Source: Vicinamibacterales bacterium
GTDB taxonomy: Bacteria > Acidobacteriota > Vicinamibacteria > Vicinamibacterales > UBA2999
Length of the DNA: 64,000 nt
Direction of reading: 5' to 3'
Assembly (NCBI GenBank): GCA_036742665.1
Contig: DAINQP010000002.1
Coordinates: forward strand, 2,531 to 66,530
The stretch's first letter is position 1, and every line of letters begins with the position of its first letter. This document shows positions 5,712-54,163 of this stretch, piece by piece. The position numbers were made by a program, and so were the translations under genes. Under the pieces are notes generated by a model. It searched no databases and was not told where the DNA came from. It worked only from the letters and a program-made list of their open reading frames with translations.

Positions 5712-7697
5712 ATGTCGGCCACGCGCAAAGTGCGAGCCGTTCGGGTTGCGCCATCCGACGCCGTCGTCCGTCGCGGTACCAACGGTGCGGTCTACATGCA
5801 GTCGGGCGTACCGCTCGGCCCATATCAGACACGGATTACCGATTCGCTCGACCATTGGGCGGCGCACGCACCCGACCGCACGTTCCTCGCACAGCGAGAC
5901 GACTCTGTAGCGGCGGGGCTTCCGCCTTCGCGTGAAGCTTCGGCGGACCGCCGTAGCCTCGGCGAAGGCGGTCAGGCCCGCGTGGACACGACGCGCGGAT
6001 GGCGGCGGTTGAACTACGGCGACGCGCTCACGCGCGTGCGTCGCATCGCGCAAGCACTCCTCGATCGCAAGCTGTCGCTCGACCGGCCGATCGTCATCCT
6101 CTCGGGCAACGGCATCGACCACGGACTGCTGGCATTGGCCGCCATGTACGTCGGCGTCCCCTATGCGCCGATCGCACCAGCCTATTCGCTCCAGGCCACC
6201 GAGTACACGGCCCTGCAGCGGATCTTCGAGCGCGTCGAGCCGGCGCTGGTCTTCACCGAGAATGGCGGGGCCTATGAACGCGCGCTGCGGTCGGTGCTCA
6301 CCAATCGGATCGAGCTGGTGGTGTCTGGATCGCCAGGCAGGCTGCGCTCGACGCCATTCTCCGAATTGGAGGGCGCGCGAGACACGGCTGCCGTAGACGA
6401 GGCGAAGCAACACGTGACCGGCGAGACGATCGCCAAAGTACTTTTCACATCGGGATCGACCGGACGGCCGAAGGGCGTGATCAACACACAGCGGATGCTG
6501 TGCTCGAACCAGGAGATGATCCGCTCCGTCCTCACATTCCTCGCCGACGAGCCACCGGTGATCTGCGATTGGTCGCCGTGGAATCACACGGCAGGGGGCA
6601 ATCACAACTTCGGACTCGTGTTGCGAAACGGCGGCACGCTGTACATCGACGAAGGCAAGCCGACGCCGGCGCTCTTCGCGGCCACACTGGGCAACCTGCG
6701 CGAGATACCCTGCACGGCGCATTTCGCGGTGCCGCGCCTCTACGAGATGTTGATGCCGCACCTGCGCAGCGACGCCGTGCTGCGCCGGACATTCTTCAGC
6801 CGTGTGCAGCTGCTCTTCTATGCGGCGGCCGGCCTCGGTCAGCGGTTCTGGGACGAGCTCCGCGACGTGGCACTCGAGGCTTGCGGCGAAGAAATCATGA
6901 TCATGACCGGCTTCGGCGCCACCGAGACCGCGCCGTTCGCCTTCACGACCGCCACGCTCAATGCGTTTGCAGGACTCGTCGGTCTTCCCGCGCCCGGCAT
7001 CGAAGTGAAGCTGACGCCGGTCGAGTCGAAGATGGAAGCACGCGTTCGTGGTCCCAACATCACACCGGGCTACTGGCGCGATGCCGCCCTCACCGCCGCA
7101 GCCTTTGACGAAGAAGGCTTCTATCGTCTCGGCGATGCGATGGAGTTTGCCGATCCGATCGATCCGCGAAACGGCCTCGTGTTCAATGGACGCCTGGCCG
7201 AGGACTTCAAGCTGTCCACCGCCACTTGGGTCAGCGTCGGTCCACTCCGCGCAAAAATTCTGGCCCAGGCCGCCGGCCTCGCACAGGATGTCGTCATCGC
7301 TGGCCACGACCGCGAATACGTAACCGCGCTGGTTTTTCCGAACCTGCAAATGTGTCGCGACGTGCTCGGCGCCGGCGCTGACACGCCGGCGCGAGCCGTG
7401 CTCTCGCACCCGGTCATCGTGAGGCGGTTCAGTGAGGTGTTCACGACTCTCGCCGCCGTGAGCACCGGCAGCTCGACCTTCGTCGCGCGCGCGATCGTGC
7501 TCGAGGATCCGCCGTCGATGGACGCGCGCGAGGTCACCGACAAAGGCTCCATTAACCAGAAGGCCGTGCTGGTACACCGCGCGGCAGTCGTTGACGAACT
7601 CTATTCGGCGTCTCCGTCCCCGCATGTGCTGATTGCCCATCAGCCAGCCGAAACGGCAGCGCCCTCCGCTGATGCCCACACACTCCATCAATGTTGA
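5712..7697 (+). CDS. AMP-dependent acyl-CoA synthetase, feruloyl-CoA-synthase-like
   Basis: AMP-binding motif LFTSGSTGRPKGV, plus GYWRD and YRLGD. The N-terminus (LGPYQTRITDSLDHWAAHAPDRTFLAQRD) resembles hydroxycinnamate-CoA ligases of the Fcs type as I remember them. The start abuts the stop of the FadB-like gene. Confidence 0.85.
   Translation: MSATRKVRAVRVAPSDAVVRRGTNGAVYMQSGVPLGPYQTRITDSLDHWAAHAPDRTFLAQRDDSVAAGLPPSREASADRRSLGEGGQARVDTTRGWRRLNYGDALTRVRRIAQALLDRKLSLDRPIVILSGNGIDHGLLALAAMYVGVPYAPIAPAYSLQATEYTALQRIFERVEPALVFTENGGAYERALRSVLTNRIELVVSGSPGRLRSTPFSELEGARDTAAVDEAKQHVTGETIAKVLFTSGSTGRPKGVINTQRMLCSNQEMIRSVLTFLADEPPVICDWSPWNHTAGGNHNFGLVLRNGGTLYIDEGKPTPALFAATLGNLREIPCTAHFAVPRLYEMLMPHLRSDAVLRRTFFSRVQLLFYAAAGLGQRFWDELRDVALEACGEEIMIMTGFGATETAPFAFTTATLNAFAGLVGLPAPGIEVKLTPVESKMEARVRGPNITPGYWRDAALTAAAFDEEGFYRLGDAMEFADPIDPRNGLVFNGRLAEDFKLSTATWVSVGPLRAKILAQAAGLAQDVVIAGHDREYVTALVFPNLQMCRDVLGAGADTPARAVLSHPVIVRRFSEVFTTLAAVSTGSSTFVARAIVLEDPPSMDAREVTDKGSINQKAVLVHRAAVVDELYSASPSPHVLIAHQPAETAAPSADAHTLHQC
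5906..5981. repeat. nested palindromic (REP/MITE-like) element lying in frame inside the acyl-CoA synthetase gene
   Basis: Outer arms are ccgccttcgc (5922-5931) and gcgaaggcgg (5962-5971). Inner arms are gcttcggcgg (5937-5946) and ccgccgtagc (5949-5958), with 1 mismatch. It is translated as AAGLPPSREASADRRSLGEGGQAR. Confidence 0.7.
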
Positions 7698-8625: not shown

Positions 8626-9312
8626 GTGAGCGCAGAGTTTTCACCCTCGGAGTCTGTCCACGAGATGCCGCACGCCGGCAATGACGGCATGGATTCTTTC
8701 CACGCCGAGCTGAAGCTCAAAAAGAAGGACTTCAAGCGGCTGTTCGACCCGACGCGCGAGCTCGATGGCTGGGAACGCTACCGCGCACTCATCGATGCCT
8801 CGGACGAAGCCTACGACCTCATCGACATCAGCAATCGCGAGGCACGATTTGCCTTGATCGTCATGGGCGCGCTCAACGCGATGCCCCTGCTGCTGTTGAC
8901 CAAGACCGACGTCATCTCCTCGATGACGCGCGGCGAGCGCATCTGGATGGTGTCGTTCCTGATCGGCTACGCGCTGCTGTTGCTCTACTTCATTCTGCAG
9001 GCGATCGAGGCGCTGCATCCCGGTCGCTTTCGTCCGTCGATGAAAGACTGGCCGACTGCCAGCCCGGACTATCCTGCCGGCGTCCGCTACTACGAGGACG
9101 TGATCAAGCGGACCCCCGCTGAGACGTGGGCGACGTGGCAGCACGTGCGGCTCTCTCAGCTCAACGCCGAGCTCGCCGTGCAGCTGCATGGCCTGGCGCT
9201 GAAGAACGACGCGAAGCACCGTGCCGTGCGGCGGTTGTTCATCGGCCTCCGCGCCATGGCGTTCATGCTTGGTGCGGTGCTGGCGATGTATCTCGTGTTC
9301 TCCTGGACGTAA
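8626..9312 (+). CDS. membrane protein of unknown function (3 predicted TM helices; weak resemblance to DUF5706 / Pycsar-effector-type TM domains)
   Basis: A soluble N-terminal helix region (WERYRALIDASDEAYDLIDISNREARFALIV) is followed by hydrophobic helices FALIVMGALNAMPLLLL, IWMVSFLIGYALLLLYFIL and a C-terminal LRAMAFMLGAVLAMYLVF. The family assignment is from memory only. Confidence 0.5.
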   Translation: MSAEFSPSESVHEMPHAGNDGMDSFHAELKLKKKDFKRLFDPTRELDGWERYRALIDASDEAYDLIDISNREARFALIVMGALNAMPLLLLTKTDVISSMTRGERIWMVSFLIGYALLLLYFILQAIEALHPGRFRPSMKDWPTASPDYPAGVRYYEDVIKRTPAETWATWQHVRLSQLNAELAVQLHGLALKNDAKHRAVRRLFIGLRAMAFMLGAVLAMYLVFSWT

Positions 9313-25103: not shown

Positions 25104-26311
25104 TTATTCGACCCTTCGCATTCATCGGTGCTCTCCTCGGATCGGCGGCCGTGGCGTCCGCGCACCACGGATTCGGCACCTTCGACCTCACGAAGAGCGT
25201 GACCTACACGGGCAAGTTGACGCGCCTCGAGTTCATCAACCCGCATTCGTGGCTCTATTTCGAGGTGGCCGACGCCAACGGCAAGCTGACGAAGTATCGC
25301 TGTGAGATGCGGTCGGCGCACACGCTGCGCCGTTCAGGATGGAAGGAAGAGCTGTTCCCGATTGGACAAACGGTGACGGTGGAAGCGGCACCCGATCGCG
25401 CCGACCCGCAGTCCTGCTACCTGAACACGATCCGCTTCGCGAATGGCACGCACATGGATCGATACGGCCAGTATGTGGCGACCGGCACGAACAAGGTCGA
25501 GGAAGTGCGTGGTCCTCTGGCCCGCCGCGGCGGCGCGCACACGGGAGGCGGCGCACCGGCGGCTCAACCTCGCGCGGCACGTCGTGCGACCGGCGAGCCG
25601 AACATCAGCGGCGACTGGGCACCGGAGCAGGTGGTGATGGCCGATCCGCGCGGGCGTGGCGGCGCGCTCGTGCCTCTGAGCGCAGTCGCGACAGCGAAGC
25701 CGGCTGAACCGCGCGCCGGCGGCGCGGGTGGCGGTGGCGGGCGAGGCCGCGGTCCGGGCGGACCACGTACCTACGCCGGAACCGAAGTCACGCCCGCAGG
25801 TGAGGAAGCGGCCGCGAAGTTCATGCCGCAGGACAATCCGCGCTTCAAGTGCCAGACGACCAACATCCTCTTCGACTGGACGTTCGACGGCCCGGTCAAC
25901 CGCATTCAGCAGAATCGCGACAACATCGTCATCTTCTACGGCCAGCTGAATCTGCGGCGCACGATCCATACGAACACCAAAACCCACCCGGCGAACGTGA
26001 CGCCGAGCCGGGCCGGCCATTCGTACGGTTATTGGGAAGGCGACGTGCTCGTCGTCGATACGACGAACTTCTTGCCCGGCTTCCTCAACTTCCCGATCCC
26101 GCACAGCGACAAGCTGCACGTGGTCGAGCGCTTCTCACTCGATGCGCAGACGATGAAGCTGACGCGCAGCTACATCGTCGAGGATCCCGTGTACCTGAAA
26201 GGTCAGGGCAAGGGACAAGATGTCGTTGAGCCCGCCGACCAGCCGTACACGCGAGACGCCTGCAAGGAGCAGCAGTTCGTGGACTACTCGAAGGAGGCCT
26301 CGTCCCGGTAA
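25100..26311 (+). CDS. fusion protein: DUF6152-like N-terminal domain + Gly/Arg-rich linker + 'family X' C-terminal domain
   Basis: ATGA overlap with the upstream gene. The signal peptide ends AVASA|HHGFGTFD. The N-domain aligns with 37613..38029 and 53730..54095 (HH...G.v....INPH.W.Y.EV.D..G). The C-terminal half aligns with 13009..13791 and 49871..51034 ([34 protein letters not shown]). Confidence 0.75.
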
Positions 26312-26324
26312 CGGGCCGTCGATC

Positions 26325-26891
26325 ATGTTGCGCGCGTTGATTTGTTGTCTCTGTGTACTTCTGGTTCCGATGTCGTCTGCGGGTCAAACCACTGACGCCG
26401 GATTCAATGAAGCGTTGTCGCCATCGATGGCGTCGGTCGTGAAGAACATGCACACGACCATTCGCCAGAATCTCGCCGACGCCGCAGAGAGCATGCCGGC
26501 CGAGGAGTACTCCTTCAAAGCGACACCGCAGGTCCGCAGCTTCGCCGAGCTGATCGGCCACGTCGTCAACGCCAACTTCTTCTTCTGCTCGCAGGCCAAG
26601 GGTGAGCCGCCGCCGAGCAAGGAGAACTTCGAGCAGGTCGCCGACAAGGCGGTGCTCGTCAAGGGTATGAACGAGGCGCTGAAGTACTGCGATGACGTCT
26701 ACAACGGCACCACGGACGCCAATTTTGGCGTGCTGATCACAATGGCCGGACCGGCAAAGAAACAGGCGAGCCGCGGATCGGTGCTGGTATTCAACACCAC
26801 GCACAACAACGAGCACTACGGCAACATCGTCGTCTATATGCGGCTGAAGGGCCACGTGCCGCCGTCCACGGCGCGCGCACAGAAAAAGTAG
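26325..26891 (+). CDS. DinB-family (four-helix-bundle metalloprotein), exported
   Basis: I moved the start to ATG 26325 ([21 protein letters not shown]). DinB-type His positions are present: [13 protein letters not shown] and [17 protein letters not shown]. Confidence 0.75.
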
Positions 26892-26929
26892 AGCGCGGGC
26901 TTCAGCCCGCGCCGACTCTCGGAGGCACC

Positions 26930-31782: not shown

Positions 31783-31814
31783 GTAGGCCGGGTCTGCTTT
31801 GTGGACCCGACTAC
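31783..31814. terminator. REP-like hairpin between convergent genes
   Basis: gtaggccgggtc-tgctttgtg-gacccgactac (a 4+6 bp stem with one bulge). The right arm overlaps the TAG stop of the minus-strand gene. There is no T-run. Confidence 0.35.
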
Positions 31815-33220: not shown

Positions 33221-33240
33221 TGTCCGGCTGAAGCCGGACA
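33221..33240 (-). terminator. GC-rich hairpin directly after the stop of 33241..33891
   Basis: tgtccggc-tgaa-gccggaca: an 8-bp stem with a tetraloop, starting 1 nt after the stop codon. There is no T-run, so function as a terminator is uncertain. Confidence 0.45.
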
Positions 33241-33891
33241 CTACATAAATCTCCCCAACAACGCGCCGCGAATTTCCTTCGGCAGGACGCCGTGCAGGTA
33301 TTCGAGCGCCGTTCCGCGGGCACGCGGATCGTCCCCGCGCAGCCCTCGATACGCCGCCCGCAGCGGTTGAACTGGCAACACAAACGACAGCAGCGTGAAG
33401 ACGTGCCGCAGGTCGGGCTCGCTCCGCGCCAGCTCGGTTCGCATCAGATCGAGCAGGCGTTCCGCATCAATCCGGACATCAGCATAACGGCGGCGGATTC
33501 GAAACAGGGAGCGTGCCGACTGTGCTCTGACGTCCGGCAACGAATCCTCGACGGCCATCAGCAGTCCATCGGCGACAACCTGCGATCGGCACACCGATAG
33601 CACTCTGGCCAGGCGCCGCCGCACGACCGGCGTTCGCGTCGGATCGAGCAGCGCGTCGAGGAGCGTACCGCAATGCGCCTCGGCAACGAGTTGCAACGCC
33701 TGCATCGCGGTCCCGGCAACGGCGCGCTCGCCGAGCAGCGGGATCACATGAGGAACGATCGACGCACGAATTGGATTACGCGGATCGAGCACCCGCCGAA
33801 TGCGGTTCACGTCGTGCGACTGCAGCGCGACGATCTGCAGGACGTCGGCGTCAGCGCCGCGCAGATTCGCCCGGGCGGGCTTCCTGGCCAC
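33241..33891 (-). CDS. HEAT/ARM-like helical repeat protein (unknown function)
   Basis: Leu/Arg-rich helical repeats (IPLLGERAVAGTAMQALQLV, VRRRLARVLSV, DVRAQSARSLFRI, RARGTALEYLHGVL). It lies 4 nt after the upstream gene's stop. Confidence 0.45.
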   Translation of the reverse strand: MARKPARANLRGADADVLQIVALQSHDVNRIRRVLDPRNPIRASIVPHVIPLLGERAVAGTAMQALQLVAEAHCGTLLDALLDPTRTPVVRRRLARVLSVCRSQVVADGLLMAVEDSLPDVRAQSARSLFRIRRRYADVRIDAERLLDLMRTELARSEPDLRHVFTLLSFVLPVQPLRAAYRGLRGDDPRARGTALEYLHGVLPKEIRGALLGRFM

Positions 33892-37659: not shown

Positions 37660-38029
37660 GCAGGCATCCGCTGCTGCCGTCGCGCAGCTGATGACAGCGC
37701 ACGCCGATCGTCGAGCCGACCTTGATCATGTCTTTCGTCCACCCGCGTCGCTCGATCTGGATGACGCTGGCACCTTCGAGCGCCCACATCATCGGCTCGC
37801 CTTTGTCGTCCTTTACCTCGAGGTAAATCCAGGTGTGCGGATTGATCCAGTGCACTTCCTTCACGACTCCTGTGAGGGTCGTGTACTCGGTCATGTTGTA
37901 GTTGCCGTGCGAGTGGTGGCCATCGATGCGCACCGTGAGAAGGCCGAAGAGCAGGAGTAGGGCGGGTCCTCTGCTTCGGACCCGGCGCGTGCACACTGCA
38001 AGACGCGCCCTCCATGTGACGGCGCTCAT
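37613..38029 (-). CDS. DUF6152-like small exported protein
   Basis: Hydrophobic N-terminus ALLLLFGLLTVRIDG|HHSHGNY. Shared blocks GVVKEVHWINPHTWIYLEVKDDKG and RRGWTKDMIKVGSTIGV. ATGA overlap with the upstream gene. Confidence 0.7.
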   Translation of the reverse strand: MSAVTWRARLAVCTRRVRSRGPALLLLFGLLTVRIDGHHSHGNYNMTEYTTLTGVVKEVHWINPHTWIYLEVKDDKGEPMMWALEGASVIQIERRGWTKDMIKVGSTIGVRCHQLRDGSSGCLLGFITLAGAAEKMFD

Positions 38030-54103: not shown

Positions 54104-54163
54104 TCGTAGGGCCCGTCCTTTCGGACCGGCCGCTCAGGCACGTCCACAGGACGTGCCCTACGA
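54104..54163. repeat. REP-like composite hairpin between convergent genes
   Basis: Outer arms are tcgtagggc (54104-54112) and gccctacga (54155-54163). The inner perfect hairpin is ggcacgtcc-aca-ggacgtgcc (54137-54157). Confidence 0.6.

Follow-up and report, generated by a model that had tools for sequence, protein, structure and literature searches.

Rickettsia palindromic elements (RPE) are reportedly palindromic repeats that lie in frame in conserved genes, are translated and are thought to be located at the protein surface, RPE-1 being said to measure ~100-150 bp, and to our knowledge no nested two-layer structure has been described for them. The GTAG and CGTC superfamilies of repetitive extragenic palindromic sequences (REPs) were described by Di Nocera, De Gregorio and Rocco in 2013 (PMC3733652), and the same paper records intragenic REPs that contribute 20-30 or more amino acids, found in Opitutus, Rickettsia, Thauera, Xanthomonas and other bacteria and frequently situated in genes for the replication or repair of DNA. 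It further notes that two Xanthomonas species have different REPs at roughly one site of recB, and that some variants have large self-complementary loops of up to 27 bp (Bradyrhizobium GTAG-14). In-frame REPs are therefore a known kind and not confined to Rickettsia, since that paper documents them in several phyla. We here analyse a case from a soil bacterium of the Acidobacteriota, a palindrome of ~76 nucleotides (nt) lying in the reading frame of an acyl-CoA synthetase gene in a 64-kb stretch of contig DAINQP010000002.1 of a Vicinamibacterales bacterium, hereafter the window. A first-pass annotation of the window had reported this palindrome and named Rickettsia as precedent; the observation is confirmed as real and its interpretation is supported, the precedent itself being valid but wider than Rickettsia alone. 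Very probably this palindrome is a selfish DNA repeat of GTAG-REP type that entered a structurally permissive loop of the gene in two steps.

A nested palindrome in an acyl-CoA synthetase gene

By exact look-up the host protein is HKH72200.1, from a metagenome-assembled genome (MAG) of a Vicinamibacterales bacterium (Acidobacteriota), where it bears the source label 'feruloyl-CoA synthase'; the 'feruloyl' substrate specificity is an annotated one, taken over from that source only. The gene has the attributes of an ANL acyl-CoA synthetase, namely an AMP-binding domain (Pfam PF00501, E 3e-45), the core motifs and an intact reading frame, and in the orthologue alignment TSGSTGRPKG and the other invariant columns are retained and the catalytic motifs are all intact. 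The NCBIfam model PRK12582 scores the protein at 714 bits, under its cut-off of 777, and inserts of this kind would indeed depress family-model scores as well as inflate the apparent protein diversity of metagenomes. The site comprises the following features.

5712..7697, forward strand: host gene, ANL-superfamily acyl-CoA synthetase of 661 amino acids (open reading frame (ORF), Pfam and exact protein look-up)
5883..5897, forward strand: conserved FLAQR strand, residues 58-62, directly 5' of the insertion site (alignments; model strand E57-62, with a high predicted local distance difference test score (pLDDT))
5907..5910, forward strand: GTAG head of the putative outer REP (from the sequence)
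5911..5921, forward strand: left half of the outer REP hairpin, stem CGGCGGGGC and the TT of the former TTCA loop (fold; homology to loci L001 and L003)
5922..5972, forward strand: palindromic core of 51 nt, codons 71-87, PPSREASADRRSLGEGG (arms, fold and comparison with orthologue P0122)
5973..5982, forward strand: right half of the outer REP hairpin, the CA of the former loop and stem GGCCCGCG (fold; comparison with L001 and L003)
6000..6017, forward strand: WRRLNY strand with what we take to be the A1-type motif of ANL enzymes, directly 3' of the insertion site (alignment; model strand E97-101)

Positions 5907-5982 form a nested palindrome that is free of stops in the host frame, which here reads ...DDSVAAGLPPSREASADRRSLGEGGQARVDTTRG..., and the frame divides the head as GTA/G.., so that its TAG stop is avoided. 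The outer arms CCGCCTTCGC (5922-5931) and GCGAAGGCGG (5962-5971) are complementary at 10 of 10 positions and the inner arms (5934-5946 and 5948-5960) at 85%, and the fold contains a third, outermost stem in which 5913-5917 pairs with 5977-5981, preceded by the GTAG. Folded as single-stranded DNA, 5895-5990 reaches -32.8 kcal/mol against -22.8 +/- 2.9 for dinucleotide shuffles (z -3.5), and none of the 200 shuffles folds as well.

Alignment with two loci that carry a homologous hairpin at the same site (L001 and L003, GTAG-AGGCGGGTC-TTCA-GACCCGCCT) resolves the palindrome into two layers, an outer hairpin GTAG-CGGCGGGGC-TT..CA-GGCCCGCG and, within its would-be TTCA loop, the 51-nt core, in which two units of 24-25 nt stand inverted to each other on either side of the apex GCTTCGGCGG-A-CCGCCGTAGC. 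The junctions of the core read GGGGCTT/CCGCC...GGCGG(T)/CAGGCCC, leaving room for a duplication of at most one ambiguous T. Without the core the outer layer is a GC-rich imperfect palindrome of ~26-30 nt, inside the 20-40 bp of GTAG-type REPs, with the GTAG head adjoining its stem-loop, and the full composite exceeds typical REP length because the core resides in the loop. The REP half of the earlier label 'REP/MITE-like' consequently stands and the other half does not, since neither the terminal inverted repeats and target-site duplication of a MITE (miniature inverted-repeat transposable element) nor a parent insertion sequence (IS) was found, and the element is a two-step composite. The nested arms lie where the first-pass annotation had placed them (5906-5981), in a frame they do not break, and the segment had rightly been called an insertion relative to homologues, but what had been taken for a single 76-nt unit of ~25 amino acids is a REP hairpin with a separate core in its loop, and the insert totals ~30 amino acids. 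It survives because its length is a multiple of three and because it is stop-free in the host frame; the tryptic peptides predicted from the insert region are DDSVAAGLPPSR and SLGEGGQAR.

That the loop merely evolved locally as a low-complexity or hypervariable stretch, or is an assembly or frameshift artefact, its palindromy being incidental, can hardly be entertained. It is true that loop length varies among orthologues and that short inverted repeats are common in so GC-rich a genome, but this reading leaves unexplained why the same sequences recur at hundreds of unrelated loci and why no shuffle folds as well; furthermore, an identical host protein is encoded on four contigs, each assembled independently, and the insert is therefore no assembly artefact. 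We likewise weighed and rejected the possibility of CRISPR, of a terminator, of an intein or some recoding signal, and of a chimeric assembly. Searched at permissive thresholds, Rfam gave no credible family for the elements, only a gyrA RNA at E 0.38 and a sub-threshold match of another hairpin to mir-1304. The latter hairpin (L149 5133-5226, reverse strand) is 94 nt long, scores 44 bits, under the gathering threshold of the model, and presumably represents another long palindromic repeat on the same contig.

One protein turn among orthologues

The spacer from FLAQR to the following W is 4-5 amino acids long in 73 of ~115 orthologues and 34 in the window protein, and most orthologues of 65-98% identity are 623 amino acids long, joining FLAQR to GWR by 4-5 residues (DGDG and similar); because of this difference in spacing the segment is, judged by the alignment, an insertion. 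The nearest insert-free relative (P0005, L247) has the empty site CAGCGGGACGGCGACCGCTGG, and its MAG (JBKPRH01) carries hairpins of the family termed A below at other loci (L026, L049, L073). An orthologue 94% identical to the window protein and in the same 90% cluster (P0122) reads DGGVVAGL-QTPLETTRG and is without exactly the 17 residues PPSREASADRRSLGEGG, an empty site for the core that is known from protein sequence only. The outgroups P0002, P0019 and P0023 are, like P0122, in the short state (V[AE]AGLQTR[LV]), and since these four have it, the short REP would in this gene have come first and the core been added later. P0122 and a long allele (P0001) derive from one metagenome, JGI 3300071325.

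Comparison of these states shows two successive insertions, with the core placed in the hairpin loop and the whole read in frame without a stop. In the first step a short REP hairpin (GTAG, GC stem of 8-9 bp, TTCA loop, complementary stem) entered the turn between the FLAQR and WRxxxY (A1) strands. In the second a conserved palindromic core of ~51 nt became lodged at the hairpin's apex, with TT on one side and CA on the other, which added 17 residues in the window lineage. A second and independent nested case exists at the same site of a 68%-identical orthologue (L248), which reads GTAG-TGTCCGGC-TT[36 nt, family-B-like]CA-GCCGGAC.

Palindromic inserts occupy this turn in 38 of 94 orthologues, the other 56 being without insert; at least four families are represented among them, some inserts lying in one orientation and some in the other.

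Family A: peptide V[EA]AGLQTR[LV], 1-3 copies; DNA GTAG-AGGCGGGTC-TTCA-GACCCGCCT (L001, L003)
Family B: peptide PAEPKRGES; DNA unit CCGCCGAAGC...CGCGAAGGCGG (L002, L005)
Family C: peptide VVSGFSRT, 1-3 copies; DNA GTGG-GGGCCGAC-TTCA-GTCGGCCC (L006), also with stem TGTCCGGC (first unit of L006, L248 and window position 33244)
Family D: peptide GGPHVPPP, up to 3 copies; DNA GTGG-GGGCCGCC-TTTA-GGCGGCCC, opposite orientation

Parsimony on a neighbour-joining tree of the 94 orthologues, with the insert columns removed, requires ~21 gain or loss steps, a number that is to be read as an order of magnitude since the tree is rough, and from the distribution of inserts the gene site appears as an insertion hotspot. 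Family A and C inserts have one orientation and one frame in every carrier, despite there being four open frames out of six, all four of which are in use at other loci. This uniformity could reflect shared ancestry with recombination or else a target preference, and the rule is not absolute, because family D is inverted.

The uniformity also bears on a rather improbable account in which a single ancient REP insertion was repeatedly overwritten by active REP families or swapped by recombination, and often lost, so that the hotspot would be only apparent. Such a history would suit the shared position, orientation and frame of families A and C, the interleaving of carriers and non-carriers on the tree, and the occurrence of alleles with and without the core together in metagenome JGI 3300071325. 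Where no insert is present, however, the loop is short and, in any one clade, well conserved (DGDG or DxxGx), which argues that the insert-free state is ancestral. The REP also has a varying number of flanking residues, 0-5 ahead of it and 2-5 behind it, and family D is inverted and family B of a different architecture. In any case this account concerns the history of the site and not the nature of the element.

Selection for a role in cis, by which the hairpin would be kept because its RNA or single-stranded DNA structure tunes mRNA stability, translation speed or N-terminal co-translational folding, or binds a protein, is another way to explain why a palindrome recurs at the same turn in so many orthologues, and the single orientation and frame of families A and C, despite the alternatives used elsewhere, would agree with it. 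We consider it somewhat less probable still than an ancient insertion, since more than half of the orthologues (56/94) manage without any insert, since those present come from at least four unrelated families, and since one of these, family D, lies in the opposite orientation. Further evidence on this role comes from the copies at other loci and is taken up with them.

An AlphaFold2 model of the host protein, built from an alignment of 94 sequences and having a mean pLDDT of 81.8, gives residues 69-88 values below 50 between the confident strands 57-62 (TFLAQR) and 97-101 (WRRLN). The insert is thus modelled as a disordered extension of the tip of a β-hairpin just before the A1-type motif, and the suggestion that a structural model might place it in a surface loop is borne out to the extent that it lies in a low-confidence loop between two confident strands. 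In ANL enzymes this β-hairpin is peripheral, and no role of the insert in catalysis is evident; the closest solved structures belong to distant relatives only.

In three other orthologues (P0075, P0098, P0119) the REP-derived peptide GFSRT stands in place of the nearly invariant W-R that opens the strand before the A1 motif, and going by the alignment the repeat has here overwritten conserved residues, beyond extending the loop. Further orthologue-specific inserts of 11-15 amino acids are found at three other positions, in P0117 (alignment columns 470-480), in P0052 (columns 597-611) and in P0023 and P0040 (C-terminal LAPPKPVAKAG), and these may be additional repeat-derived inserts.

Copies of the hairpin and of the core at other loci

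Comparison with other loci shows that both layers belong to dispersed families. For the outer layer, a search with the 20-mer GGCGGGKCTTCAGRCCCGCC as an exact pattern, one genome per species, returned at least 120 stretches, mostly from MAGs of Vicinamibacterales or other Acidobacteriota, MFD02840.bin.2.88 alone accounting for at least 13 matches and SMAG_U7885 for at least 7, and the flanks of these family-A copies are unrelated between loci. Among the 128 family-A matches listed, nearly all copies of the Acidobacteriota type have, ahead of the stem, the GTAG and one further base able to pair with that following the stem; ~121 are non-coding and ~7 coding by a heuristic based on ORFs and on GC content at third codon positions (GC3). 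A GTAG head is found on 184 of 239 short hairpins. By the same heuristic the family-A and long-form copies are mostly extragenic, as GTAG-type REPs are, and on these features of sequence and placement the outer layer has the anatomy of a GTAG-type REP.

Some Vicinamibacterales MAGs contain head-to-tail arrays of at least three family-A REPs with a period of ~31 nt (L051 5180-5300, L078 490-580, L124 640-900), and no further family-A copy was found in 22 kb around the P0023 orthologue. Typical GTAG-headed acidobacterial REPs also occur on contigs of MAGs from unrelated phyla, one labelled Acidimicrobiia (L012) and others Dehalococcoidales or Bifidobacteriaceae (L013, L033, L042, L047), which may be due to mis-binning or to horizontal spread. 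The same 20-nt hairpin recurs in Labrys spp. (Alphaproteobacteria; L007, L017, L034, L050, L055, L063, L069 and others) but was rejected there as an acidobacterial REP, being preceded by GGGG and having no GTAG head; T runs follow several of these copies (e.g. L007, L017, L099), and their sequence suggests intrinsic terminators or else a repeat of another kind.

A metagenome scan for the core with the apex 21-mer GCTYCGGCGGACCGCCGWAGC as an exact pattern likewise yielded at least 120 stretches. The long forms have the architecture GTAG - variable stem - TT - CCGCCTTCGC - n(3-7) - GCTTCGGCGG-A-CCGCCGTAGC - CTTG - GCGGAGGC(T)GG - T(C/T)A - complementary stem, with a modal insert of 50 nt between TT and TCA or TTA, and loci from named MAGs contain them as well (L044 twice, L097, L058, L012). 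Conservation amounts to 88% in the core columns, those of the searched 21-mer excluded, and to 64% in the columns of the outer stem, where for each pair 10-34 of 64 sequences have both bases changed and the pairing kept; a GTAG head is present on 51 of the 64, and 16 of 26 distinct outer stems also exist as short hairpins of the form stem-TTYA-stem'. Because the core is conserved, the stems are variable yet paired and these 16 stems also occur as short REPs, the core is a module residing in the loops of many different REPs. In some long forms (L166, L172, L148, L226, L157) an extra layer, either an added CTTCCGCCTTCGC... segment or another hairpin, lies within the left arm, which suggests repeated nesting, palindromes inside palindromes. 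The expectation of the first-pass annotation that the palindrome belongs to a multi-copy family is hence borne out by families with unrelated flanks in at least 120 stretches for either layer.

The long forms supply the remaining evidence on a role in cis. In 56 of 64 copies T and G stand opposite each other in the arms and can pair on the GTAG strand only, here the sense strand, which suggests that the structure matters as a single strand; the core is moreover almost invariant, and mRNA-level effects of REPs are credited in the literature (PMC3733652). The same elements are however mostly intergenic, and where they fall within genes, these are unrelated and have been entered in either orientation; by the GC3/ORF heuristic ~101 of the 113 long forms are non-coding and ~12 apparently coding. 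The absence of any matching Rfam family likewise speaks against such a role.

Survival in frame is, as far as the surrounding ORFs tell, general in the lineage. All ten in-frame candidates tested elsewhere, seven long forms and three of family A, lie in ORFs with real Pfam domains (cytochrome b, DNA polymerase III alpha/DnaE in two cases, GH38 mannosidase, ThiS-ThiF-rhodanese, B12/radical SAM, YdjM, a xylose-isomerase-like TIM barrel, FdhE and an OmpR-type regulator), and three of the ten read the core in the frame used by the host gene (...EASADRRSLG...). Such in-frame REPs illustrate that selfish DNA can supply conserved enzymes with extra peptide segments and leave them undestroyed.

The window holds six further GTAG-headed hairpins with varied stems, at 26888, 31783, 33244 (reverse strand), 37957, 54106 and 54161 (reverse strand), which are arranged as follows.

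26888..26913, forward strand: intergenic REP of the same type, GTAG-AGCGCGGGC-TTCA-GCCCGCGC; with its TAG the head terminates the upstream ORF 26220..26891
31783..31814, no single strand: GTAG-headed hairpin with one head per strand (hairpin scan)
33221..33244, reverse strand: intergenic REP with a family C stem, GTAG-TGTCCGGC-TTCA-GCCGGACA; with its TAG the head terminates the upstream ORF 33241..33891 (reverse strand)
37957..37986, forward strand: GTAG-GGCGGGTCC hairpin (hairpin scan)
54106..54161, no single strand: two GTAG-headed hairpins in inverted orientation, 54106 forward and 54161 reverse (hairpin scan)

The similarity that had been noticed between the start of the element and the intergenic 'gtag' hairpins at 31783 and 54104 is accordingly found again and extends to all six. 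As to the number of copies, relatives are abundant elsewhere in the lineage, but searches of the window allowing up to three mismatches, with the whole element, with each arm and with the outer hairpin, found only the element itself.

Some observations concern the surroundings of the gene. The host protein ends in ...PSADAHTLHQC (window 7640-7697), eight residues beyond its 98%-identical relatives (...PLR), probably owing to some minor alteration close to the stop codon, and the extended 3' end overlaps the start of a downstream amidohydrolase gene. This pair is followed by a gene for a conserved membrane protein of 215-228 amino acids with a weak PycTM (PF18967) match (window 8626-9312, forward strand) and then by a convergent Metallophos gene, and this synteny is kept across orthologous loci (L001, L003, L247).

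Movement, and comparison with known repeats

In the two-step reading that we favour, both layers would have moved as single-stranded hairpins by means of a REP-associated tyrosine transposase (RAYT) or another IS200-like HUH tyrosine transposase, the core would target REP loops, and the hotspot would arise because the loop tolerates inserts, possibly with some target preference, selection leaving only those insertions that fall into a tolerant loop. Mobilisation of single-stranded hairpins by RAYT/HUH enzymes is indeed the current hypothesis for GTAG REPs (PMC3733652, PMC3116915, PMC3479197). Several points weigh against this reading. An nhmmer profile of 64 long forms detected a single copy in the 64-kb window and no further long form there, and a weak motif scan (HUH and Y..NP, six frames, ~2 Mb of loci plus the window) found no RAYT-like ORF, although RAYTs are usually single-copy. 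Long and short forms could also be related by deletion of the core instead of its insertion, the direction being deduced from outgroups and for the host gene only, where the empty site of the second step is that of the P0122 protein sequence. A flank-to-flank BLAST among the fetched loci gave, apart from the host gene, no other filled and empty pair than the untidy L184/L077, in which the counterpart has a different 46-nt sequence and no clean empty site. Furthermore, the core is very highly conserved over many contigs, and this could signify a function; the copy counts, which come from exact patterns, are lower bounds (at least 120).

A bolder version is possible, if we hold it only tentatively, namely that the 51-nt core is itself a mobile element that inserts into the apical TTCA or TTTA loop of GTAG-REP hairpins whatever their stem, recognising the hairpin loop and not the sequence and so being a parasite of REPs, and that entry of REPs into the turn of this gene is target-directed and not merely tolerated. 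If this were true, the locus would be a natural system for hairpin-loop-targeted transposition of single-stranded DNA and for the repeated remodelling of one protein loop, and a core that truly targets REP loops would represent a new level of nesting among bacterial repeats and point to a mechanism of hairpin-loop recognition. On the favoured reading too, one protein loop offers an unusually clean natural series, in which the empty site, the short REP, the REP with core, REPs in tandem and, in either orientation, several families are all represented, and this series may be used to study how surface loops tolerate insertions and how REPs move, a movement that still is without experimental demonstration.

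The element resembles RPEs in behaviour only, that is in the in-frame survival of a palindromic repeat in a conserved gene, whereas RPE-1 is longer, phylum and lifestyle differ and the sequences are probably unrelated. Insertion sequences that target REPs are likewise comparable: IS1397 and ISKpn1 reside in REP loops, the loop being the insertion point of IS1397, and IS621 and ISPpu9/10 in REPs. These would share with the core the specific insertion of mobile DNA into REP hairpins, but they are full-length elements with their own transposase and the core is a 51-nt palindrome without coding capacity. A likeness to REP doublets forming hairpins (REPINs; Bertels and Rainey 2011, PMC3116915) is found in the long hairpins made of inverted short repeats, presumed to be non-autonomous and RAYT-dependent. 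REPINs however consist of two inverted REPs with conserved ends and a variable spacer, whereas the present element has one GTAG head, a conserved middle (88%) and a variable basal stem (64%).

The closest match is with the GTAG REPs of PMC3733652, with which the repeats share the 5' GT[AG]G head, a GC-rich stem of 6-13 bp and a short loop, dispersal (here across the lineage) in many copies that mostly lie just 3' of genes, and a minority in frame within genes, often DnaE, two DnaE genes carrying copies here as well. They differ in belonging to a lineage outside the coverage of that paper, in one conserved loop module of ~51 nt that is common to more than 20 outer stems, and in one gene site that has been taken by at least four families in ~40% of orthologues. 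The first-pass annotation had known of no documentation for this lineage, and our literature search in fact found no paper on REPs of Vicinamibacteria, nor a description of one conserved core of ~51 nt common to many REP stems or of a single protein turn with at least four REP families in ~40% of orthologues. Whereas the in-frame REP as such is already known, what is new here is hence the lineage, the core residing in the loop and the hotspot.

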